In this document: positions 1 to 23,265 of the stretch, in pieces
How the letters are laid out: each line of letters begins with the position of its first letter
Numbering within the stretch: position 1 is the stretch's first letter
NCBI GenBank assembly: GCA_964395915.1
Contig: CAYNDB010000002.1
Location: 10,817 to 57,323 of the forward strand
Length of the DNA: 46,507 nucleotides
Source of the DNA: an uncultured Nitrospinota bacterium
GTDB lineage: Bacteria > Nitrospinota_A > UBA7883 > JAJRTC01
Direction: 5' to 3'
Notes under the pieces: generated by a model
What the model saw: only the letters and a program-made list of their open reading frames with translations
Database searches by the model: none
Told to the model about the DNA's origin: nothing
Translations under genes and position numbers: made by a program

Positions 1-230
1 GGCAGGTACGAAACGCGTATATCCGGCCATTCACCTTCAAAATAGCGTTCTATCCGTATCCATGACATGGTGCGCTTTTGGAAGGCCAGCTCCTCACCTA
101 CAACCGCAACGTTATTTTCCGCCTGACACGCTATTGTGCACGCGCCACATCCATTGCAACGGTCAAGGTCTATCACCATGACCCATTTGTAGTTGTTATC
201 GTGACTATAATTGAAAGACTTCACCTTCAT
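1..230 (-). CDS. 4Fe-4S ferredoxin-type iron-sulfur subunit of the adjacent molybdopterin-family complex (ActB2/QrcC/PsrB-like); the 3' part lies outside the window
   Basis: Not in the ORF track because it runs off the left edge. My translation of the minus strand from the ATG at 230..228 gives MKVKSFNYSHDNNYKWVMVIDLDRCNGCGACTIACQAENNVAVVGEE..., which contains a CxxCxxCxxxC ferredoxin motif. The start overlaps the end of the upstream subunit gene, whose stop is at 205..207. Confidence 0.7.
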   Translation of the reverse strand, partial: MKVKSFNYSHDNNYKWVMVIDLDRCNGCGACTIACQAENNVAVVGEELAFQKRTMSWIRIERYFEGEWPDIRVSYL

Positions 231-2460
231 ACTCTCCTTTGGGATGACCTTCGCGTACCATTTTTACTTTTCTATCGGTTTTTGTTATTTTCACTTTTAC
301 ACCGCGCCACGCCAGAGCCCCTGACGCGCCAAGAACAGGAAATGAGCCAAGCAAATCCATAGCGTTAGAACCTCGTCCAGTTGCGTCTTTCCCAAATGAC
401 TTATGCCCGTATCCGAACGGAACCGCCAATGTGTCCGGGCTGATACCGGGATATAAATGCGCCGGAGCCTCTATTGAGCCATAGGGTGATGAGATTTTTA
501 GAATATCACCCTGATGAATGCCCAGTGTCTCAGCTTTATGTGAATTTATCTCCACCCACATTCCCCAGCTTAAAGTTGTTATCGGTTCTGGCATCTCAAG
601 AAGCCACGTCAAGTTTGCCACGCGTCCATCACCAATGTTCACAGTTTCGTATGGAAGAAGATGAAAGTTATGCTCTGAACCTCCAGAGAAAACAGGATTG
701 CTCACCTTAAGCTGGCTCGACACATTCCATAATTGGTCGGTAGAAGGAGGCGGCTCAAGCTCGTCTGCGCGGTTTTCAGGCCACCACCCGCCTTTTTGCA
801 AAAGAAACTCCCATACTTCGTTATTTTCATAAGCGGGAGGAACTTCCGGCCATTCCGCCCGGAAATCGGTAATCATTTTTTTTATCATTGATTCCTGACT
901 ATCGAAGCCTATATCTATTCCAGCCATTTTAGCGGCTTTTAATATTACGTCGCCAGCCTGCATAGTGTCATAAAGCGGGCGTACCACAGGCTGTTGAGTG
1001 TTCACCATTGGCGATCCGTGCGGATAATCGGGAATCTGGATCGACCAGGCTTCAAGGAAGTGATGATCTGGAAGAACCAGGTCGGCGTACATGGTAGTGT
1101 CATTTAAAAATGTGTCAAACGACACAAGAAAATCAACCTTGGAAAGCGCGTTCCCAGCGTCAAGATATCCTGGCAGGGCATGCGCCGGATTTGAGTTGAT
1201 GATCATGCCAAAAGCCATTTTACCCTGCGAAGATTTTTTTAATATATCTTTTGTCGCCTGAAATTCTTTAACGGCGATCGGCGCGCCGATAACGTTTCTC
1301 ATCCTTTTATAAAGATCGGAATCAGCATATGGCAGGTCAGGGATTTTCAGTTCCCCTTTATGTCTTGCAATCTCACGCAGTAACATATTTAAAAATGATA
1401 CAGCTTTCATAGCTTCCATGCCGTTGCTCTGGTTTGCGACATCATCGCCAGGAACCACAACCGCCGGCTGATGAGTTATAAATTGCCTTGCAAGCTCTTT
1501 AATATTCCACTCCGATACACCCGTCCGAATAGCTGTTGTGGTAAGTGAATATTCTTTAAGAGCCGCGGACCATTTAGCCAGAGTCGGCCTTGGAACGAAA
1601 GTGAGCATTCTCTCTTTATCCGCCATGCGCAAAACTTCGCTGGCCAGAGCAAGGGCGAGAATACCAAGCGTCCCATGTTTTGAAGCTATATATTTATCAG
1701 CGGTAGCCGCTGTCATAGACACTCGGGGACCGGCGTACATAAGAACACCACGACGAGTGGGATCGCCCCGCCGCATCTTTCCATATGCCCAGCTGTAATG
1801 AACTGGCGAGATAGAATTTTCAAACAGATCAGCCCCGAGAAGAAGAACAAACGAGGCATGTGTCAAATCGTAATATGGCAAGGAAAATTCATCGCTGAAC
1901 ATCGATGAGGAGACAAGGCTTGTTTCAATTCCCTGAATATCAGGTGTCACAAAATCTTTCGACCCAAGCTTGTTGAGAATCTTGTTCGCAATAGCGGCGG
2001 TTATATCTGACGGGTCTGATGTCATTACAAATGAATTTTCCCCAACTGCGTTTTTCATCTTTTCAGACAGTATGGAAAAAGCTTCATCCCATGTAATCTT
2101 GACAAAATTATTGGAGCCTTTAGGGCCTTCAACCCTTTTCAGCGGATGTTTGATTCTTTCAGGATGATACAATTGCTGCACTGCGGCCTGCCCGCGAGCG
2201 CACACTCCGCCCCTGTTGATAGGGTGGTTCGGGTTTCCCTCCACCTTTTTTGCCCGACCTTCGACTGTGCGCACCATTATCCCGCATCCGGAGCCGCACA
2301 TTTTGCAAGTAGTGGCAAAAAACCATCCTTCTACAGGATTTATGCCGTCATCAGGAGGCGTCACATATGGAATTATCTTTTGCGCCGCTTGCCCGCAAGC
2401 TCCGGTAAGGCCAGCCGTCGCAACAGCCCCGCCTATTTTAAGAAACGAACGTCTATCCAC
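205..2460 (-). CDS. Tat-exported molybdopterin-oxidoreductase-family large subunit (ActB1/QrcB/PsrA-like)
   Basis: 751 aa. Twin-arginine signal MDRRSFLKIGGAVATAGLTGACG. N-terminal Cx2Cx3C...C Fe-S motif (CKMCGSGCGIMV...GGVCARG). Flanked by a pentahaem cytochrome gene upstream and an FeS subunit gene downstream. Confidence 0.85.
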   Translation of the reverse strand: MDRRSFLKIGGAVATAGLTGACGQAAQKIIPYVTPPDDGINPVEGWFFATTCKMCGSGCGIMVRTVEGRAKKVEGNPNHPINRGGVCARGQAAVQQLYHPERIKHPLKRVEGPKGSNNFVKITWDEAFSILSEKMKNAVGENSFVMTSDPSDITAAIANKILNKLGSKDFVTPDIQGIETSLVSSSMFSDEFSLPYYDLTHASFVLLLGADLFENSISPVHYSWAYGKMRRGDPTRRGVLMYAGPRVSMTAATADKYIASKHGTLGILALALASEVLRMADKERMLTFVPRPTLAKWSAALKEYSLTTTAIRTGVSEWNIKELARQFITHQPAVVVPGDDVANQSNGMEAMKAVSFLNMLLREIARHKGELKIPDLPYADSDLYKRMRNVIGAPIAVKEFQATKDILKKSSQGKMAFGMIINSNPAHALPGYLDAGNALSKVDFLVSFDTFLNDTTMYADLVLPDHHFLEAWSIQIPDYPHGSPMVNTQQPVVRPLYDTMQAGDVILKAAKMAGIDIGFDSQESMIKKMITDFRAEWPEVPPAYENNEVWEFLLQKGGWWPENRADELEPPPSTDQLWNVSSQLKVSNPVFSGGSEHNFHLLPYETVNIGDGRVANLTWLLEMPEPITTLSWGMWVEINSHKAETLGIHQGDILKISSPYGSIEAPAHLYPGISPDTLAVPFGYGHKSFGKDATGRGSNAMDLLGSFPVLGASGALAWRGVKVKITKTDRKVKMVREGHPKGEYEGEVFQL

Positions 2461-2470
2461 ACTATCTCTC

Positions 2471-3031
2471 CTATTGATGACATGTCAAGCAGTCGGTCGG
2501 CGCGTTATTTGCCTGGTGGCAATTGAGACAAAACCCCATATGATGGGTTATGAGCCGCGCGTTAACTTCAAGCGTCTCGACAGGCCCATGGCACTTCTGA
2601 CACGAAACATCTTTTGCCAAATGTCTTTTGTGACTGAACCATACATGGTCCGGCAGGTCATATATTCTGACCCATTCTATGGGCGTACGATCTTCGAAAT
2701 GTTTTCTAAGTATTTTTATAGGTTCGGTTTCGACCGATAAATTGTCGTGACAGTTCATGCATTTTGCGAGTGATGGAATTCCCGCCATTTCCGAACGTCT
2801 TGCGTAGGAGTGACAATACTGGCAGTTGATCTCGAGGTCCCCTGCATGGAGCTTGTGAGAATATGGTATTGGTTGTTCCGGCTCCCATACGGTCAGAGAC
2901 TCGACAGGGGCCACATAAAAGAAAATTACGAACCCGACAAAGCCAAAGGCGCCAAGGATTAAAACTATCGAGATGGATTTGGCGATATTGGATCTTACGC
3001 CCAGGGATTGATAGCCTCGCATTCTTCCCAC
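2471..3031 (-). CDS. Membrane-anchored pentahaem cytochrome c (ActA/QrcA-like, cytochrome c3/c7 family)
   Basis: 186 aa with an N-terminal TM helix (ISIVLILGAFGFVGFVIFFYV). Five CxxCH motifs: CQYCH, CMNCH, CQKCH, CLNCH, CLTCH. It is the first gene of the cyt c / MopB / FeS string. Confidence 0.8.
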   Translation of the reverse strand: MGRMRGYQSLGVRSNIAKSISIVLILGAFGFVGFVIFFYVAPVESLTVWEPEQPIPYSHKLHAGDLEINCQYCHSYARRSEMAGIPSLAKCMNCHDNLSVETEPIKILRKHFEDRTPIEWVRIYDLPDHVWFSHKRHLAKDVSCQKCHGPVETLEVNARLITHHMGFCLNCHQANNAPTDCLTCHQ

Positions 3032-13564: not shown

Positions 13565-14374
13565 ATGGGACCGGCGGACAATACTGCAACGGCTAACAAC
13601 GACATATACCTTGTTGTGAGAACTCGTTCCATCTTTGCGTGTCTCCTGCACTGGATATTATTCACATCTGTGGTAGTTCTTACGCTCACAGGGTTATACA
13701 TCGGCTACCCGTCATATTTTTACGGGCAGGGTGAAGCGTGGCAAGCGTCCACAATGGCTGATATCCGGACATATCATCTTTACGCGGCGCTTGCGCTGAT
13801 ATTCTCGATTTTCACCAGAATGTATCTTGCGTTTACAAAATCATGCAACAGGGATATGAAACAATTCCTTCCCACACCTAAAAATATAATCGGGGCGCTA
13901 CGTCTCGCAAAATTCTTTATAACTTTCAAAGGCCCCCACAAACATTACCGCTTTGTAAACCCGCTTGGGGGTATAGGCATTTTCACGATGTCGATACTAT
14001 TCCTCGTTCAAATTTTCACGGGGTTGGCGCTTTATCTTCCGGGAGCCAATCCAGACAGCTGGTGGTGGGCCATATGGATACAGCCTGTGGCGGAAAACCT
14101 CCTGGGAGGTTTGCAGGGGGTGCGTCTTATTCACCATATTGCTATGTATATATTGGCGGCGGTCGTAATCATTCATGTATATATGCAAATTTGGAAAACC
14201 AGCATGTACACGGAATCTGACATATCTTCAATAATTTCCGGATACAAAATATTCCCGTTAAGCCAGATAGGCCATTTCGACGATGTATACGGTATACGGC
14301 TGGACGATGCTCCGCCAAGCAAAGATGAGATGGAGAAAGAGTCTGAAATTACTATCGAAGCAAGATATAAATGA
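13565..14374 (+). CDS. Dihaem b-type cytochrome membrane subunit of [NiFe]-hydrogenase (HyaC/HydC/FdnI family), copy 1
   Basis: 269 aa with four predicted TM helices. Conserved His residues in TM1 (LLHW), TM2 (YHLY) and TM4 (IHH...IIHVY). RBS GGAGAGGA. Ends 20 bp upstream of the small subunit gene. Confidence 0.8.
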   Translation: MGPADNTATANNDIYLVVRTRSIFACLLHWILFTSVVVLTLTGLYIGYPSYFYGQGEAWQASTMADIRTYHLYAALALIFSIFTRMYLAFTKSCNRDMKQFLPTPKNIIGALRLAKFFITFKGPHKHYRFVNPLGGIGIFTMSILFLVQIFTGLALYLPGANPDSWWWAIWIQPVAENLLGGLQGVRLIHHIAMYILAAVVIIHVYMQIWKTSMYTESDISSIISGYKIFPLSQIGHFDDVYGIRLDDAPPSKDEMEKESEITIEARYK

Positions 14375-14394
14375 TCTGAATACTGGAGGGTATC

Positions 14395-15519
14395 ATGTGT
14401 CAAACAGGAGGATTGATCGGGCCTACGCGTGAGGAAAAGCTTGAGGCCCTTGGGAACCTTGACCGGCGGGATTTTATGATGTTTTGCGTTACGATCGCCG
14501 CCACGCTTGGGCTGAGCCCTTCGTTTATTCCTAAAATAGCGGAAGCTATAGAAAAGGCCGCCAGCAAACCTTCTGTGATATGGCTCCATTTCGCGGAATG
14601 TACCGGAGACTCCGAGGCTTTCCTCCGCTCGACATACCCATCCATTGAAGATTTGATTTTGAACATTCTCTCCATCGATTATCACGAGACCATCATGGCC
14701 CCGTCGGGCGATGCCGCGGAAGAGGCGCTGGCAAAAGCGATGAAGGATAACAAAGGTAAATATATTGCCGTGTGTGAAGGCGCCATTCCAATGGCCACCC
14801 CTCCGGGACCAGCGGGCAAACTCGGCTCTTACCTTACTCTCGGCAATAAAACAGGATTTGAGCTTGCAAAAGAAGTATGCTCGGACGCATTCGCTGTGAT
14901 GTGTGTAGGGACATGCTCTTCTTTTGGTGGTGTTCAGGCGCAGAGACCAAACCCCACAGGAGCGGTTGGAGTGGAGGACGCTATTGGAATCCCCACGCTT
15001 AAGATACCGGGATGCCCTCATAACGTTATCAACTCGGTCGCTTCAATAGTCAACTATCTCCTGCTGGGTTCACTGCCAGCGACAGACAGGCTGGGGCGCC
15101 CGCTTTTCGCATATGGCAAGCGGATACACGACACCTGCCCGCGAAGAGCGCATTTCGACGCGGGCCAATATGTGGAACAATTCGGCGACGAAGCTTCTAA
15201 AAGAAGGTGGTGTCTCTACAAGGTTGGATGCAAAGGTCCGCAGACCTATCACAACTGTTCGCAAGTTGGATACAACGACAACACCTCATGGCCCATTAAA
15301 GGCGGACACGGATGCATAGGATGTTCCGAGCCGAACTTTTGGGATGATATGCAACCCTTCTATGAGAGGCTGCCAAACGTGAGGTTACCGGGAGTTGAGG
15401 CTACTGCGGACAAGGTCGGCATGACGCTGGTCGGCGCCGCGGCGGCCGGAGCCGCGGGACATGCCGCATGGACAATATTCAACAGGAAAAAGTTCGACGA
15501 CACCTCCAAGGATGAATAA
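14395..15519 (+). CDS. [NiFe]-hydrogenase small subunit, Tat-exported, with a C-terminal membrane anchor
   Basis: 374 aa. Tat motif DRRDFMMF. Aligns by eye along the whole length to standard group-1 small subunits (WLHFAECTG-, GTCSSFGG, IPGCPHN, HDTCPR, CLYKVGCKGP, HNC, GHGCIGCSEPNFWD). Hydrophobic C-terminal helix VGMTLVGAAAAGAAGHAAWTIF. Confidence 0.93.
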   Translation: MCQTGGLIGPTREEKLEALGNLDRRDFMMFCVTIAATLGLSPSFIPKIAEAIEKAASKPSVIWLHFAECTGDSEAFLRSTYPSIEDLILNILSIDYHETIMAPSGDAAEEALAKAMKDNKGKYIAVCEGAIPMATPPGPAGKLGSYLTLGNKTGFELAKEVCSDAFAVMCVGTCSSFGGVQAQRPNPTGAVGVEDAIGIPTLKIPGCPHNVINSVASIVNYLLLGSLPATDRLGRPLFAYGKRIHDTCPRRAHFDAGQYVEQFGDEASKRRWCLYKVGCKGPQTYHNCSQVGYNDNTSWPIKGGHGCIGCSEPNFWDDMQPFYERLPNVRLPGVEATADKVGMTLVGAAAAGAAGHAAWTIFNRKKFDDTSKDE

Positions 15520-15537
15520 AAGGAAGAGAGGCGCGAC

Positions 15538-17202
15538 ATGGGTGAGAGGCACGTTATAGATCCTATTACCAGGATCGAGGGACATCTGAGGATAGAGATA
15601 GAGCTTGAAAACGGAAAGGTGAAAGACGCCTGGAGTTCCGGAACGCTTTGGCGGGGCTTTGAGGTGTTCCTTAAAGGGCGCGACCCGCGTGACGCATGGC
15701 TCATAACACAGCGGGTTTGCGGCGTATGCACCGAGGTGCACGCGCTCACATCCGTCAAATGTGTCGAGAACGCGGCCGGGATAAAAATTCCTGATAACGC
15801 GCGGCTTATACGCAACCTTATCCACGGCGCTCAATATCTGCACGATCATCCTGTGCATTTTTATCATCTGCACGCATTGGACTGGGTGGATGTGGTCTCG
15901 GCGCTTAAGGCCGATCCTAAAAAAACATCGGAGCTTACAAATTCCATCAACCCGAACGCTCCCAGAAGTGGCCCTGGCGATTTTGCGGTTGTGAAGGATA
16001 AGCTAAGCAAATTCGTTTCCGCAGGCCAGCTTGGGCCATTTACGAATGGATACTGGGGGCACCCGGCATATAAGCTGCCGCCGGAGGCGAACCTGATGGC
16101 TGTCGCCCACTATCTTACAGCGCTTGCGATGCAAAGCAGGATCGCCAGGATGCACGCTGTGTTTGGCGCGAAAAATCCGCATATACAAACGTACACCGTC
16201 GGCGGTGTGACGTGTATCAACGATCTTAACGCGGACAGGATCAGCGAGTTTCTGTTCATTCTTCGTGAAGCGAAAGATTTTATCGATAACGTTTATATCC
16301 CGGACGTACTGGCCGTCGCCCCTTTCTATCTTGACTGGGCCAAGCTCGGCGGAGGTGTGAAAAACTATCTGACGTATGGAATGTTCCCTCAAAAAGGTGG
16401 TGAGGAACCGGATAATTTATGGTTCCCGCGTGGCGTGATCCTGGACAGGGACCTTTCTAAAGTTCACCCGGTGGACGTAGACAAGATAACAGAGGATGTT
16501 ACTCACGCCTGGTACAAATATTCAAAGGACGAGCCGCTGCACCCAAGTGTTGGGGAGACAGACCCATGGTACACGGGAATAGAAACGGGCAAAGAAAATG
16601 GGAAATACTCGTGGCTGAAAACTCCGCGCTATGACGGAAAGGCCATGGAGGTGGGGCCACTTTCCAGGATGCTTGTCAACTACGCATCTGGACATGAATC
16701 GACAGTGCGTGAGGTAAATGGCGTACTCAAAGCGCTGGGAGTAGGGCCGGAGATACTTTTCTCCACGCTTGGCCGCACAGCCGCCAGAGCCATTGAAACA
16801 AAGATTATCGCTCATGAGATGGAAAACTGGGTGAACGAATTGCTTTCGAACATCAAGAAGGGTGATTTGAAAACATGTGTAGATTATCCGGCGCCATCAG
16901 TCGCAAAGGGGTTTGGCATGACAGAGGCTCCCCGCGGCGCGCTCGGCCATTGGATAGAAATCGTCGATGGAAAGATAAAGAACTATCAGCTGGTCGTGCC
17001 GACAACATGGAATGGATCACCGAGGGATAAAAACAATATACGGTCGGCGTTCGAAGAGTCGCTTATCGGGACACCTGTTATCGATCCGAAACAGCCGGTC
17101 GAGGTGTTGCGGACTATTCATTCGTTCGATCCGTGTCTTGCATGTTCGGTTCATATCATTGACCCAGATAATAATGAGACCTACACGGTAAAAGCCGTGT
17201 AG
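15538..17202 (+). CDS. [NiFe]-hydrogenase large (catalytic) subunit
   Basis: 554 aa. N-terminal RIEGHLRIE and RVCGVCTEVH (L1/L2 Ni-Fe ligands). C-terminal DPCLACSVH followed by a 15-residue tail that the endopeptidase would remove. The ligands are Cys, not Sec, so this is not a [NiFeSe] enzyme. Confidence 0.95.
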   Translation: MGERHVIDPITRIEGHLRIEIELENGKVKDAWSSGTLWRGFEVFLKGRDPRDAWLITQRVCGVCTEVHALTSVKCVENAAGIKIPDNARLIRNLIHGAQYLHDHPVHFYHLHALDWVDVVSALKADPKKTSELTNSINPNAPRSGPGDFAVVKDKLSKFVSAGQLGPFTNGYWGHPAYKLPPEANLMAVAHYLTALAMQSRIARMHAVFGAKNPHIQTYTVGGVTCINDLNADRISEFLFILREAKDFIDNVYIPDVLAVAPFYLDWAKLGGGVKNYLTYGMFPQKGGEEPDNLWFPRGVILDRDLSKVHPVDVDKITEDVTHAWYKYSKDEPLHPSVGETDPWYTGIETGKENGKYSWLKTPRYDGKAMEVGPLSRMLVNYASGHESTVREVNGVLKALGVGPEILFSTLGRTAARAIETKIIAHEMENWVNELLSNIKKGDLKTCVDYPAPSVAKGFGMTEAPRGALGHWIEIVDGKIKNYQLVVPTTWNGSPRDKNNIRSAFEESLIGTPVIDPKQPVEVLRTIHSFDPCLACSVHIIDPDNNETYTVKAV

Positions 17203-17215
17203 CCGGAGGTAACAT

Positions 17216-17908
17216 ATGCCACATAGATTTATATCACCGCAAAAAAAGAAGCTGGTTTACGTGCGGAATTTCACGAACCGGTTATTGCACTGGACTATGT
17301 TTTTTGCGGTAATGGTTCTGTTGCCGACAGGTTATTATATCGGTAATCCAACCGCCGTTTACGGGCAGGGTGAGCCAGTTCAGGCGTTTGTTATGGCCGA
17401 CATCAGGCTATACCATTTCTATGCCGCTATGGCTTTGGATGTAGCCATAATGATTCGTTTCTACCTTGCGTTTTTCAGTGTATACCACCGTGACTGGTAC
17501 GAAATAATACCAACACCTGCAAATATTTATGGCGCTCTAAAAGTCATCGGAAGTTATATAACATTCAAAAAGCCCCCGTTTTTTCGCCATACCGACCCGT
17601 TTGACGGGTTTATGTTTCTAACTTTACATCTGTTTATGGTTCTGCAACTTGTGACAGGATTCCAGCTCTATGTCCACGCTTTGCCAGGCGACTACTGGTT
17701 CGCGCAGCTTATTCATATGGGCACAGACTGGATAACATGGTTGCTGGGAAGCGATCAAACCGTACGGCTTGTTCATCACATGATGCTCTGGATCATGATT
17801 GCAGGAATAATAGTTCACGTATATATCCAGGTAATCAAGACTGTGATATGGCGGGACGGACATATTTCAACCATTATCGGCGGATATAAATACCGCGATG
17901 TAAAATGA
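17216..17908 (+). CDS. Dihaem b-type cytochrome membrane subunit of [NiFe]-hydrogenase (HyaC/HydC/FdnI family), copy 2
   Basis: 230 aa and clearly paralogous to 13565..14374. For example MADIRLYHFYAAMAL...RFYLAF here matches MADIRTYHLYAALAL...RMYLAF there, and VRLVHHM...IIVHVYIQV matches VRLIHHI...VIIHVYMQI. RBS GGAGG. Confidence 0.85.
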   Translation: MPHRFISPQKKKLVYVRNFTNRLLHWTMFFAVMVLLPTGYYIGNPTAVYGQGEPVQAFVMADIRLYHFYAAMALDVAIMIRFYLAFFSVYHRDWYEIIPTPANIYGALKVIGSYITFKKPPFFRHTDPFDGFMFLTLHLFMVLQLVTGFQLYVHALPGDYWFAQLIHMGTDWITWLLGSDQTVRLVHHMMLWIMIAGIIVHVYIQVIKTVIWRDGHISTIIGGYKYRDVK

Positions 17909-18426
17909 CAAAACCAGCCAAGCCTCGTATCGTGATTATTGGCATAGGCAATATTTTCCTGTCCGATGAAGGGGTAGGCGTTCACGCTATAAGTAAACTT
18001 TTAAATGAATGGGAGTTCCCCTCAAACGTTGAAGTATATGATGGTGGTGTTACAGGAATGATGGGGCTCCTGCCAATTATTGAAGACACGGATCACCTGA
18101 TAGTAATCGACGTGGTAAACTCGGGCGATCCGCCCGGCTACATCCGCACATACACACTGGGTGATTTCAGGCTTGTCATGCCAAAGAAACTTTCCGCGCA
18201 TGATATCGGTTTTTTAGAATGCATCGCCATTGCTGAAATCAACGGGAAAACTCCGAAATCTGTGACTGTCATCGGTATTAAACCTGTGGATATAGAAACT
18301 CCCCGAAACGTTTTGAGCGATATTGTTGATTCAAAGCTTGCCGAAATAACGGAAATAACAATCGGCGAGTTGCAAAAACTGGGAGCGATAGCCGTTAAAC
18401 GGCAATTTAGTTCGCCATCTTTTTAA
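17905..18426 (+). CDS. Hydrogenase maturation endopeptidase (HyaD/HybD/HupD family)
   Basis: 173 aa. N-terminal VIIGIGNIFLSDEGVGVHA, an internal IDVV motif and an SAHDIG motif, all typical of this family. ATGA overlap with the preceding cyt b gene. Confidence 0.9.
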   Translation: MTKPAKPRIVIIGIGNIFLSDEGVGVHAISKLLNEWEFPSNVEVYDGGVTGMMGLLPIIEDTDHLIVIDVVNSGDPPGYIRTYTLGDFRLVMPKKLSAHDIGFLECIAIAEINGKTPKSVTVIGIKPVDIETPRNVLSDIVDSKLAEITEITIGELQKLGAIAVKRQFSSPSF

Positions 18427-19863: not shown

Positions 19864-21900
19864 ATGGGGAAAGCGAAAATGAATCGCTCCATTATAATCA
19901 TTCTGCTGGTTGCCGCGCTATTCCAGGTAACTGTGGCATCCGGTTCAGAAAACTGTTTCCAATGCCACTCCGATCCAGAACTTAAAATGGAAAGAAATGG
20001 TAAAACGATTTCCCTATATGTAGACAAAAATAAATTCATCAAGTCAGCTCATGGCGATTTTGATTGCGCCGCTTGTCATCTTGAAGTTAACCCCGAAAAG
20101 ATACCACACTTCGCGGATTATCAAAGAGTGGAGTGCGGCTCCTGTCATGAGGAAGCGCAAGAATCATATTCGAAAGGGTCGCACGGAGCGGCGCTGAAAA
20201 GGGAGGTGAAAGACGCTCCTGATTGCGTTACCTGCCATGGCAAGCACAATATACTAGCTTCCACAGAACGTTCATCGAAAACCAACAGGATGAATATACC
20301 CTCTTTGTGCGGGGAGTGTCATCGAAAAAAAGGTAAGGCTGTGGAGGCTACTGGACGGACTGCTTTGGGAGTTTATAGCGACTATTCTTTCAGCGTTCAC
20401 GGCAAGGGACTTCGTGAAAAGGGACTTCTGCCGTCAGCGATTTGTACAGACTGCCACAACAGCCATAAAGCTATTAGGAGCAGAGACTCTCTTTCCCCTG
20501 TTAACAGGCTGAATATCGATTCCACATGCGGGCGGTGCCACCTTGGTATTCTTGAAAAGCTTGAAAAGAGCATTCATTATACAGTGAATAAAAATGACGC
20601 AGGGAAATATCCGACATGCTCAGACTGCCATTCCGCTCATCAAATTTCCGAAGTAAAACGAGGGAAGTTCATCATGGAGGTACGCTACCAGTGTGGAGTT
20701 TGTCACGCCAAGCTTTCAGAAACCTATCTTGAAACAATTCATGGAAAAGCTTTCCAACTCGGTTATCTTAAAGCGGCTTCATGCTCCAACTGTCATGAAT
20801 CACATATGACACTTGCGGTTAATAACTCTGATTCCAGCGTTGGGAAAAAAAATATTTTAAAAACATGCCGAAAATGTCACGAAAGGGCAACATATAAATT
20901 TACCCAATACCTGACACACGCCACGCACAAGGACAAGGAGCGATATCCGGCGCTTTACTACGCATACTGGAGCATGACTACTTTGCTATTAAGTGTTTTC
21001 GGTTTTTTTGGTCTCCACACCCTGTTGTGGTTGCCCAGATCATTAGCGCACAGAAAAAAACTTAAAAAAGAAGTGAAAATCGGACGATACATCTTGCGTT
21101 TCACCCTTGCCGATCGAATAACTCATCTATTTGTCGTTACAAGCTTCCTTCTTTTGGCGTTAACCGGTATGGTTCTGAAATTTTCCTCAATGCCATGGGC
21201 TTTGTGGCTCTCCGATATTATGGGCGGCCCTGCTGTAGCCAGAATCATTCATAGAATATGCGCGGTTATTACTTTCGGTTACTTTTTTTATCATCTTTGG
21301 GGTCTTGCTAAAAAGAAACGTGACAAAGGGACAACCTGGGCGAAATTTATTTTTGGTGAAAACTCTATTTTCCCCAACCTGCATGATGTCAAAGAATTCT
21401 GGGGTACAATCAAATGGTTCGTTGGAGCTGGGCCAAGACCTTTGTATGGACATTGGACATACTGGGAAAAATTTGACTACTTTGCCGTATTCTGGGGTGT
21501 GGCTATTATTGGGCTAAGTGGATTGATGCTCTGGTTTCCCGAACAGTTTACTATTCTGTTCCCCGGTTGGGTAATCAACGTCGCTACAATAATACATAGC
21601 GAAGAGGCCTTACTTGCGACAGGTTTTATTTTTGTTGTCCATTTTTTCAACACGCACTTAAGGCCAGAGTCTTTTCCTATGGATAAAATCATTTTCACTG
21701 GAGCCATTCCTGAGGAGAGGCTTGCGCTTGAGCGACCTTCCGAATACGAAGAGCTCAAGAAAAGTGGAGAAATAGATAAACTTGTTGTCGAGGCGCCATC
21801 GGAGAAGTGGGATAAATACATTTATATTATAGGCGGGGCGTTTCTGGTAATCGGCATTGCGCTGGCTCTTCTAATAATTTATTCCACACTTGCGGACTGA
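19864..21900 (+). CDS. Fusion protein: 11-haem periplasmic cytochrome c domain plus C-terminal HydC/FdnI-type dihaem-b membrane domain (CbcL-like)
   Basis: 678 aa with a signal peptide. Eleven CxxCH motifs lie in residues ~30-340 (CFQCH, CAACH, CGSCH, CVTCH, CGECH, CTDCH, CGRCH, CSDCH, CGVCH, CSNCH, CRKCH). These are followed by 5-6 TM helices with conserved His (ITHLF, IIHRI, IIHSEE, VVHFFNTH). An alternative start at the ATG at 19879 has the better RBS (GGGGAAAG). Confidence 0.85.
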   Translation: MGKAKMNRSIIIILLVAALFQVTVASGSENCFQCHSDPELKMERNGKTISLYVDKNKFIKSAHGDFDCAACHLEVNPEKIPHFADYQRVECGSCHEEAQESYSKGSHGAALKREVKDAPDCVTCHGKHNILASTERSSKTNRMNIPSLCGECHRKKGKAVEATGRTALGVYSDYSFSVHGKGLREKGLLPSAICTDCHNSHKAIRSRDSLSPVNRLNIDSTCGRCHLGILEKLEKSIHYTVNKNDAGKYPTCSDCHSAHQISEVKRGKFIMEVRYQCGVCHAKLSETYLETIHGKAFQLGYLKAASCSNCHESHMTLAVNNSDSSVGKKNILKTCRKCHERATYKFTQYLTHATHKDKERYPALYYAYWSMTTLLLSVFGFFGLHTLLWLPRSLAHRKKLKKEVKIGRYILRFTLADRITHLFVVTSFLLLALTGMVLKFSSMPWALWLSDIMGGPAVARIIHRICAVITFGYFFYHLWGLAKKKRDKGTTWAKFIFGENSIFPNLHDVKEFWGTIKWFVGAGPRPLYGHWTYWEKFDYFAVFWGVAIIGLSGLMLWFPEQFTILFPGWVINVATIIHSEEALLATGFIFVVHFFNTHLRPESFPMDKIIFTGAIPEERLALERPSEYEELKKSGEIDKLVVEAPSEKWDKYIYIIGGAFLVIGIALALLIIYSTLAD

Positions 21901-21937: not shown

Positions 21938-22144
21938 TTATTTGAACATCCCCTTATGTATCGCCTCGAGAATCACCAGAGCCACCCAGAACAGAAACCC
22001 GCCCAACAACAACAGGCCGCCAACATTCAGGGTCACCACAAGTTTGAACGGTGTGTTGGAGACAAGAGACAGGCTAAGCGCAATTGTACCCACGATATTG
22101 AAAGCTATAGCCATCTTCATTAGAAACGGTATTTTTTCTTTCAT
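21938..22144 (-). CDS. Small two-TM membrane protein, function unknown
   Basis: 68 aa with two hydrophobic helices. Its ATG lies 1 nt after the stop of the NapC/NirT-like gene, which suggests translational coupling. I recognise no motif. Confidence 0.5.
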   Translation of the reverse strand: MKEKIPFLMKMAIAFNIVGTIALSLSLVSNTPFKLVVTLNVGGLLLLGGFLFWVALVILEAIHKGMFK

Positions 22145-22145
22145 C

Positions 22146-22745
22146 TTACCAATCCTCCTCTGAAGCCAGCAAATGCCCCATGTCGTGACAACCGCTGGAC
22201 AAACATGAGCGCCTGCCGTCCATTATCTGATCGGACAGACCATCACCCAGCATATGAGGCAGGGCTTCAATAAAATTCCGCGCAACACCATGACATCGCA
22301 GGCAATTCCTGTTTTCATATTTTTCATAGAGCTTAATTTTTTCAGGGGCGCCTTTTACGTAATAAACATAAAGATGTTTTACCCCTCTTAACTTGGCTTG
22401 CACAGGGCCGAACATGGTGTATTGAGTATGGCACGCATAACATGCTTCCTCCTGCGGCACCCAGTTGTTCTGGAAATGAATAGCCGATAGCGGCTCATCG
22501 TCGTCTACATTGAGACTTTCAACGTATTTGGTCATAACGTGGCATTTTGCGCAGAAGCTTACCTTTTTCACCCTTTCAAGGTCTTGCGACACAACTCCCA
22601 AACCCCAGAAAAGAGGGAAAACGCCCAAAGTGAAAAAAGCCAGGAACTTTTTTGCCCTTACGGTGAGACGCCGCCATTCTCCTATGAGCATGAATGAGAT
22701 GAAAACGATGTTGCCCAGCGCAAAAAATATCAGGATTATAGTCAT
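22146..22745 (-). CDS. Membrane-anchored NapC/NirT/NrfH-like multihaem cytochrome c (three CxxCH plus one Cx4CH)
   Basis: 199 aa with two N-terminal hydrophobic helices. Haem motifs CAKCH, CYACH and CLRCH, plus C-terminal CLSSGCH (a Cx4CH encoded at 22185..22205). Confidence 0.75.
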   Translation of the reverse strand: MTIILIFFALGNIVFISFMLIGEWRRLTVRAKKFLAFFTLGVFPLFWGLGVVSQDLERVKKVSFCAKCHVMTKYVESLNVDDDEPLSAIHFQNNWVPQEEACYACHTQYTMFGPVQAKLRGVKHLYVYYVKGAPEKIKLYEKYENRNCLRCHGVARNFIEALPHMLGDGLSDQIMDGRRSCLSSGCHDMGHLLASEEDW

Positions 22746-22833
22746 TATTTTACTCCTTCCAAAAAGAAGGATTGGTTTTAATAACCATCTTAGCTAATAA
22801 TTTGCAGGATATAATCTCAACATTAAGCCAATA

Positions 22834-23178
22834 TTATTGCGCTGGCGGTGTCTTGAGGCTCAAAAGCCACATCTCCAGTTTTTTATACTCTTCCTTGCTT
22901 CCTTTAAAACGTTTAAGGTGTTTTTTCCCATTCAATTTGATTTTCTTTCGTAAATACTTTACGAGAAAATCACTATCATGCTTTAGGCCAATATCTGAAA
23001 GGTCAGGGGATTCCATTAACTTTTTTTCCCCATTTATACCATGCGCCTTGACGGTATGACATTTGACGCACCCTTTCTCATGGAAAATCTTTTCACCGGA
23101 AGTGTCGGCAAATACGGAAGACGGTAAAACAAACAAGGAATAAAATACTATAGACACTGCAAGAGTTGCCACTTTCAT
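22834..23178 (-). CDS. Secreted monohaem class-I cytochrome c
   Basis: Single CVKCH motif. The ORF track starts it at 23208. The ATG at 23178 has a GGAGG 8 nt upstream and yields a clean signal peptide, MKVATLAVSIVFYSLFVLPSSVFA. Confidence 0.75.
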   Translation of the reverse strand: MKVATLAVSIVFYSLFVLPSSVFADTSGEKIFHEKGCVKCHTVKAHGINGEKKLMESPDLSDIGLKHDSDFLVKYLRKKIKLNGKKHLKRFKGSKEEYKKLEMWLLSLKTPPAQ

Positions 23179-23265
23179 GCCATTTCCCTCCTTTGAAAAG
23201 GAAATCAAATAGAAGAGACTTTTCTACTTATAAATATAAGCCCTTAATTTTAAAAATGGCGAAAA

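Follow-up and report, generated by a model that had tools for sequence, protein, structure and literature searches.

An 11-haem bc-type cytochrome, likely of the CbcL/MtrH/MtoC family, downstream of a [NiFe] hydrogenase operon in an uncultured Nitrospinota bacterium

A stretch of 46,507 nucleotides from an uncultured Nitrospinota bacterium (GenBank assembly GCA_964395915.1, contig CAYNDB010000002.1, positions 10,817 to 57,323 of the forward strand), here called the window, carries a gene in which a multihaem cytochrome c domain is joined to a membrane domain of the dihaem cytochrome b type. The gene lies on the same strand as, and downstream of, an operon for an uptake [NiFe] hydrogenase. The source genome is a 2.5 Mb draft in 185 contigs and is 91% complete. 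Features of the fusion gene and of its surroundings are collected in Table 1. Taking family, architecture and role jointly, we consider it very likely that the product is an inner-membrane bc-type cytochrome of the CbcL/MtrH/MtoC family that connects the quinone pool with periplasmic cytochromes. This family is large and has been catalogued before; the protein is an ordinary member of it and its design is not new.

Table 1. Positions of the fusion gene, its parts and its neighbours, counted from the first letter of the window.
Feature	Position	Strand	Basis
Whole gene, bc-type cytochrome, likely of the CbcL/MtrH/MtoC family	19864..21900 (incl. stop codon)	+	678-amino-acid open reading frame
Predicted Sec-type signal peptide, residues 1-27	19864..19944	+	read from sequence
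11-haem c domain, first to last CxxCH, residues 31-339	19954..20880	+	motif positions
Single 8-haem module, residues 31-256	19954..20631	+	
Predicted linker transmembrane helix TM0, residues 362-402	20947..21069	+	AlphaFold2 model, loop charges, conservation
FdnI/HydC-type four-helix dihaem-b core, residues 408-595	21085..21648	+	profile, structure and ligand matches
Predicted C-terminal sixth transmembrane helix, residues 647-677	21802..21894	+	AlphaFold2 model, loop charges
Further family-conserved histidines H385, H477 and H598	21016..21018, 21292..21294 and 21655..21657	+	
Uptake [NiFe] hydrogenase operon: cytochrome b, small subunit, large subunit, second cytochrome b, maturation protease	13565..18426	+	
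First hydrogenase cytochrome b gene, before the small subunit gene	13565..14374	+	
Second hydrogenase cytochrome b gene, after the large subunit gene	17216..17908	+	
ExtKL-like pentahaem cytochrome, 377 amino acids	18505..19638	+	NCBIfam E 4e-22, below cut-off
Convergent NapC/NrfH-like membrane cytochrome (199 amino acids; 22146..22745) and monohaem cytochrome c (22834..23208)	22146..23208	-	
QrcB-like molybdopterin-type subunit and QrcA-like pentahaem cytochrome	205..3031	-	

A single open reading frame (ORF) with a signal peptide, 11 CxxCH motifs and five or six transmembrane helices had been described in an earlier reading made from the sequence alone (the sequence-only reading). This description was borne out, with a protein of 678 amino acids and six helices. 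At the N-terminus, MGKAKMNRSIIIILLVAALFQVTVASGS, a Sec signal peptide is predicted, in which a K/R-rich n-region is followed by a hydrophobic core and VASG stands at the end. Two in-frame ATG codons lie five codons apart (19864 and 19879), and a purine-rich GGGGAAAG is found just upstream of the second, at which the public gene call of 673 amino acids starts. The GC content across the gene (0.42-0.46) is similar to that of the flanking DNA and gives no sign of a recent horizontal transfer of the fusion gene.

The 11 CxxCH motifs are placed at residues 31, 68, 91, 121, 149, 194, 222, 252, 277, 307 and 335 and contain 22 of the 23 cysteines of the protein. They are laid out as one 8-haem module (spacing 37-23-30-28-45-28-30) and a 3-haem tail (25-30-28). 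Twelve additional histidines within the domain are possible distal ligands, ten of which are invariant in an alignment of 25 sequences. The conserved histidines suffice for bis-His ligation of all c haems, and they fit the all-bis-His ligation reported for CbcL of Geobacter sulfurreducens (GSU0274).

The membrane domain was modelled with AlphaFold2 on the 25-sequence alignment (mean predicted local distance difference test score 78). The model contains six long helices (residues 362-402, 415-439, 456-488, 533-557, 569-594 and 647-677). The loops at residues 391-415, 482-535 and 595-649 hold 8-9 Lys/Arg each, while those at 440-457 and 558-570 hold none. Since the loop charges obey the positive-inside rule, the basic loops are predicted to be cytoplasmic and the 11-haem domain periplasmic, in agreement with the topology proposed before. 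TM0 would then carry the chain back across the membrane to the cytoplasm after the haem domain. The same topology is demanded by the attachment of haem c, which takes place on the outer face of the membrane.

The sequence-only reading had further assigned the C-terminus, with its conserved histidines, to the HydC/FdnI type and had made this call depend on homology to HydC/FdnI. Such homology was found at the level of both sequence and fold. The NCBIfam FdoI and FdnI models match the four-helix core with E-values of 2.5e-11 and 1.3e-9. Escherichia coli FdnI (PDB 1KQF chain C, 1kqf_C) is matched by sequence (E 0.0027), and the same chain is the top match of a Foldseek search (probability 1.00, template modelling score 0.79 on the target). 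In the HMMER alignment to 1kqf_C, H421, H463, H578 and H593 align with the His columns of the FdnI blocks, namely H18, H57, H155 and H169, which we take to be the four ligands of both FdnI b haems. The ligand pairs are H421 and H593 for the cytoplasmic-side haem and H463 and H578 for the periplasmic-side haem, and the placing of one His each on helices 1 and 2 and of two on helix 4 follows the pattern of the PF01292-type bundle. The four b-haem histidines and a YWEKFD block recur in 73-75 of the 75 family members compared, CbcL-type ones included; the b-core family signature of the window protein is WTYWEKFDYFAVFWG. FdnI itself differs in being a separate subunit of 217 amino acids that has neither a c-haem domain nor an N-terminal linker helix nor a sixth helix, and its identity to the window protein is only about 18%.

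Two profile scores speak against the assignment of the b core. The NCBIfam FdoI/FdnI matches score far under their equivalog cut-offs, and the match to Pfam Ni_hydr_CYTB (PF01292; E 3.2e-5) reaches 24.2 bits and thus stays below the gathering cut-off of 30.1 bits. However, because the homologue in the genome of a relative (G024) scores 42.6 bits against PF01292, the window protein appears to be a divergent branch of this family and not a non-member.

Besides the haem ligands, three histidines are conserved in the family. H385 sits in the linker helix TM0 (73 of 75 members) and H598 comes after helix 4 (66 of 75), while H477 is found in 57 of 75 members, the eight CbcL-type representatives all having another residue in its place. 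These histidines might belong to a quinone site or ligate an additional haem.

An artificial joining of two genes by a frameshift or an assembly error had been named as a risk from the start. The source genome is a draft in 185 contigs and most close homologues are about 250 amino acids longer, so that the fusion or its short length might be such an artefact, or the protein a decaying remnant after the loss of eight haems. Yet the residues F346, L350, H352, A353, Y361, P362 and M371 at the junction of the c and b domains are invariant in the 25 aligned sequences, which come from several phyla. More than 3,800 database proteins match the window protein over its full length. When one genome of each species was scanned, the signature WTYWEKF / DY[FML]AVFWG of the b domain was joined to a multihaem domain in at least 598 genomes. 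As the join is conserved in hundreds of genomes, the fusion does not look like an artefact, and a frameshift can, on this comparison, be considered excluded for practical purposes. Concerning the short length, four other 11-haem proteins from independent assemblies, G024 among them, keep all 11 motifs and fall into the same clade. The two modules of the longer homologues share no more than about 34% identity, too little for an assembler to merge them, and every haem motif and His ligand of the window protein is intact. Artefact and decay are both extremely unlikely.

Homologs of CbcL, MtrH and MtoC have been surveyed before (Zhong & Shi 2018, PMC6295460). They were found in 15 phyla, are 416-1034 amino acids long, have mostly six transmembrane helices and span 3-23 CxxCH motifs. 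Table S2 of this survey contains 11-haem members (Opitutus terrae Oter_2603, Lacunisphaera limnophila, Dadabacteria CSP1-2, Lentisphaerae and others) as well as 19-haem members from Bacteroidetes, Ignavibacteria and others. The window protein has the features of the family, namely 11 CxxCH motifs after a signal peptide, six helices, an FdnI-like b domain and His ligands in the transmembrane helices. Its homology to named members was established by an indirect link, through the b domain, a motif of CbcL and the representative P0030, which is 52% identical to the window protein and shares its 19 haem positions with the tabulated BAX79136.1 (Marinifilaceae). The tabulated 11-haem members have the same haem number and nearly the same spacing, as exemplified by Oter_2603 (37-21-30-28-44-28-30-25-34-28).

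A HMMER scan of 1.84 billion cluster representatives (50% identity) with the b domain gave 2,364 matches, of which 370 had E<=1e-30. The haem count most often seen among the best 150 representatives was 11 (19 clusters, versus 18 clusters with nine haems). The earlier description of the protein as CbcL-like with more haems therefore stands as far as the count of 11 against 9 is concerned, but this number is not unusual. In a tree of b domains, the 11-haem representatives (P0248, P0258, P0260, P0261 and others; not name-matched to the tabulated organisms) were scattered over several branches, and the 11-haem state probably arose or was kept more than once. Such proteins carry public labels like 'cytochrome c3 family protein', 'hypothetical protein' or 'cytochrome b subunit of formate dehydrogenase'. 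The practical value of the present assignment lies in correct annotation, as CbcL/MtrH/MtoC-type links from the quinone pool to periplasmic cytochromes.

The architecture had been compared to that of Geobacter sulfurreducens CbcL, and at the family level this comparison holds. Both proteins have a signal peptide, a periplasmic multihaem c domain with bis-His ligation, six transmembrane helices and a dihaem b domain of the FdnI/HydC type, and they share the b-domain signature YWEKFD.FAVFWG and the His ligands. CbcL, however, has 619 amino acids and nine haems with a spacing of 23-25-23-24-29-28-43-28, whereas the window protein has 678 amino acids and 11 haems spaced 37-23-30-28-45-28-30-25-30-28. 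A further difference is H477, which is absent in the CbcL type and conserved in most of the family. For the tree, CbcL-type proteins were recognised among the cluster representatives by their haem spacing (nine haems, ending ...43-28 as in GSU0274), that is, by inference and not by a named identification. These representatives formed a separate clade with 97% support and the window protein was placed elsewhere. Since the CbcL-type proteins form a clade of their own, the window protein appears to be a member of the family but not an orthologue of CbcL. Its b domain is 38-46% (BLASTP) or 39-49% (phmmer) identical to those of the nine-haem representatives with CbcL-type spacing. A fragment of G. 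sulfurreducens CbcL, machine-read and noisy, was available from the supplement of PMC9129911. It contains ...RWYWEKFDFAVFWG..., and one motif was used from it: the YWEKFD block, with Phe where the CbcL-type representatives have Phe. A sequence search of the PDB found no CbcL entry, and the forms obtained from the scan of species genomes were all 19-haem ones. The entry 28pb_A (a 'Cytochrome c' of 278 amino acids) was considered as the soluble domain of CbcL and was dropped, as the aligned sequence was unlike CbcL.

MtoC (Sideroxydans, Gallionella, Dechloromonas) and MtrH (Rhodoferax) belong to the same surveyed family and resemble the window protein in the spacing of the last four haems (25-30-28) and in their six transmembrane helices. 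They have nine haems and are encoded in mtoAB/mtrAB porin-cytochrome clusters, whereas no MtrB-type porin was found in the source genome.

The nearest relatives of the window protein are about 925 amino acids long, contain 19 haems and are 51-56% identical to it over more than 90% of the protein. The 19-haem forms consist of two tandem 8-haem modules with the identical spacing 37-23-30-28-45-28-30 and of a 3-haem tail. They occur, uncharacterised, in Draconibacterium sediminis, Maribellus sp. YY47, Marinifilaceae SPP2 (BAX79136.1) and further Bacteroidota, Calditrichota and others. Intra-module spacing, tail and b domain are alike in these proteins and the window protein, but in place of two tandem modules the latter has a single, chimeric one. 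Its haem intervals 1-4 are about 50% identical to module 1 of the 19-haem forms and 31% to module 2, while intervals 5-8 are about 57% identical to module 2 and 35% to module 1, so the module is first module 1-like and then module 2-like. The same pattern was seen in four other short forms (11 haems, 57-58% full-length identity). In the b-domain tree the five short forms make up one clade (support 87) within a clade of 99% support that otherwise consists of 19-haem proteins. From these alignments it seems probable that eight haems of a 19-haem ancestor were removed when its tandem 8-haem modules recombined once, in register. A point against this origin is that more distant 11-haem proteins show a fainter module 1/module 2 pattern; because of these proteins, unequal divergence after the duplication could mimic a deletion. 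A recombination of this kind would be a clean example of how the length of a haem wire is altered by whole 8-haem units and would be of modest interest to specialists.

The neighbourhood of the 19-haem forms was examined at 80 loci in other phyla. Four kinds of gene recur there, coding for a Crp regulator, a hexahaem cytochrome resembling MtrC, a membrane beta-barrel of the DUF5777 type and a separate cytochrome b561. In Bacteroidota and Calditrichota (locus L026, 4824-12769; locus L021, 7385-12721), the 19-haem form is clustered with all four and with a gene for a monohaem protein, a layout that looks like an uncharacterised porin-cytochrome system. At L021 a second paralogue of the fusion, with 798 amino acids, lies in divergent orientation beside the 19-haem form.

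With regard to function, the two b haems would span the membrane and join a menaquinone/menaquinol site to the periplasmic 11-haem chain, and through the protein the quinone pool and soluble multihaem cytochromes would exchange electrons. The source genome contains a futalosine-pathway gene for menaquinone. CbcL is a menaquinol/menaquinone oxidase and passes electrons to periplasmic trihaem cytochromes (PMC9129911; bioRxiv 10.1101/2022.08.31.506072). It is required for acceptors below about -0.1 V and is inactivated when the potential is high. By analogy with this protein we lean towards an outward direction of electron flow, from menaquinol to periplasmic cytochromes. Using cytochrome b subunits of its own, the uptake hydrogenase encoded nearby would make menaquinol from H2. 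The fusion protein would oxidise the menaquinol, and the electrons would exit via the 11 c haems, reach periplasmic cytochromes such as the ExtKL-like pentahaem protein and pass on to periplasmic or surface acceptors. An exit from quinol to a periplasmic haem wire, of the CbcL kind, had also been the proposal of the sequence-only reading and is supported as the most likely role, with the direction as an inferred part. Several points weigh against an outward route to external acceptors. The direction of electron flow is not readable from sequence, and the family is represented among Fe(III) reducers as well as Fe(II) oxidisers (PMC6295460). No MtrB_PioB or DUF5777 porin was found in the 91%-complete genome, the DUF5777 search having been run without a positive control. 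As no MtrB-type or DUF5777 conduit was detected, an extracellular end-point is not supported in the source genome.

The b core bears directly on the opposite direction, in which periplasmic cytochromes that had taken up electrons from H2, Fe(II) or another donor would pass them to menaquinone at a cytoplasmic-side site and so form a proton-motive redox loop, as FdnI does in formate dehydrogenase-N and as proposed for MtoC. FdnI carries electrons inward to a cytoplasmic-side menaquinone site, and the likeness of the b core to FdnI was seen in the NCBIfam matches, the alignment and the Foldseek search. Likewise, the spacing of the last haems (25-30-28) is of the MtoC/MtrH type and not that of CbcL, and the presence of QrcA/QrcB-like genes in the window implies that the organism may use cytochrome-to-quinone routes. 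The family survey could not tell oxidases from reductases by sequence (PMC6295460). On the other hand, with two cytochrome b genes for quinone reduction in the hydrogenase operon itself, a second inward route for electrons from H2 is unneeded, and CbcL, for which genetic and electrochemical evidence exists, acts as a quinol oxidase. We regard inward flow as unlikely, though a serious alternative, and retain oxidation of menaquinol as the preferred direction.

The hydrogenase operon upstream is presumed to be the entry point of electrons from H2 into the menaquinone pool. Its first cytochrome b scores 130.6 bits and thereby lies above the cut-off of the TIGR02125 model (121.5 bits), and the second lies just below it with 117.5 bits. 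In the related operon of another genome (G030), only the downstream cytochrome b copy is present. The nearest hydrogenase homologues are labelled as Nitrospinota/Nitrospinae metagenome-assembled genomes and as hydrothermal vent metagenome. Between the operon and the fusion gene lies the gene of the pentahaem cytochrome, a distant relative of Geobacter ExtKL and a candidate for the periplasmic electron partner. Its family has 2-4 copies per genome in the class, and the source genome has three, on contigs C2, C18 and C72. The gaps from the protease gene to the ExtKL-like gene and from there to the fusion gene are 78 and 225 bp, respectively.

The placement directly downstream of a hydrogenase operon had been put forward as notable. 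Adjacency does recur in one other genus of the class, where a 19-haem homologue and a cytochrome cluster adjoin hydS-hydL-cyt b-hyaD (G030, apparently also G019). It is, however, no trait of the family, since no homologue of the hydrogenase operon was found within up to 10 kb on either side at any of the 80 loci from other phyla. In G024 and in the metagenome contigs of the closest short forms (P0123 and P0125), the gene is flanked by a c7-type trihaem gene and, in convergent orientation, by a 17-haem NapC fusion, without an adjacent hydrogenase. Five other relatives bearing the gene also lack the adjacency, and G001, a relative from the same family, has the hydrogenase but no fusion gene.

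These data bear on a dedicated partnership, in which the hydrogenase or a cytochrome docked to it would feed the 11-haem domain directly, bypassing the quinone pool, with the gene as a functional part of the operon. In its favour, the fusion gene follows the protease gene at a distance of 1.4 kb and shares its strand, no clear terminator separates the two, and the arrangement in G030 and G019 also fits such a partnership. Against it stand the 80 loci from other phyla, the other gene-bearing relatives without adjacent hydrogenase and the G001 genome, and in relatives the intervening ExtKL-like gene is not linked to hydrogenase. We consider a direct partnership very improbable. For the quinone-linked role preferred here, a functional link of the fusion protein to H2 is plausible but unproven. 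The gaps of 78 and 225 bp contained no convincing terminator or promoter and speak neither for nor against co-transcription with the hydrogenase.

The adjacency arose or persisted at least twice in the class, which is suggestive of coupling but short of evidence. A more far-reaching proposal would be that the CbcL-family gene and the uptake hydrogenase are functionally coupled and form a co-inherited module of the class, leading from H2 via menaquinone to a periplasmic haem wire that was cut from 19 to 11 haems by one in-register recombination. In this full form the proposal is doubtful. If true, a lineage known mainly for its nitrite oxidisers would have, as a trait, the H2-driven respiration of metals or other cytochrome-accessible acceptors. 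That two lineages of one class share the adjacency is suggestive of H2-fed cytochrome respiration in this uncultured group. Neither the loss of a haem unit nor the hydrogenase neighbourhood alters the existing picture of family function.

Downstream of the fusion gene, the convergent NapC/NrfH-like cytochrome occupies a site at which relatives carry a 17-haem NapC fusion of 660-674 amino acids (L014, 7601-9625; L018, 8892-10874; L102, 2375-4393). The NapC/NirT-family cytochrome of the window (region 21938..23208, minus strand) is only weakly similar to this fusion (pairwise E 2e-4). The multihaem cluster of G024 and G030, comprising a multihaem cytochrome of 808-815 amino acids and the 17-haem NapC fusion, was not found in the source genome by tblastn. 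In total, the source genome has 23 ORFs with at least three CxxCH motifs. Near the left end of the window, a molybdopterin-type subunit of 751 amino acids resembles QrcB (E 3.6e-103) and a pentahaem cytochrome of 186 amino acids resembles QrcA (E 1e-23), both matches being under their cut-offs. In sulfate reducers, QrcA and QrcB form part of the menaquinone reductase complex; the complex in the window extends past its left end.

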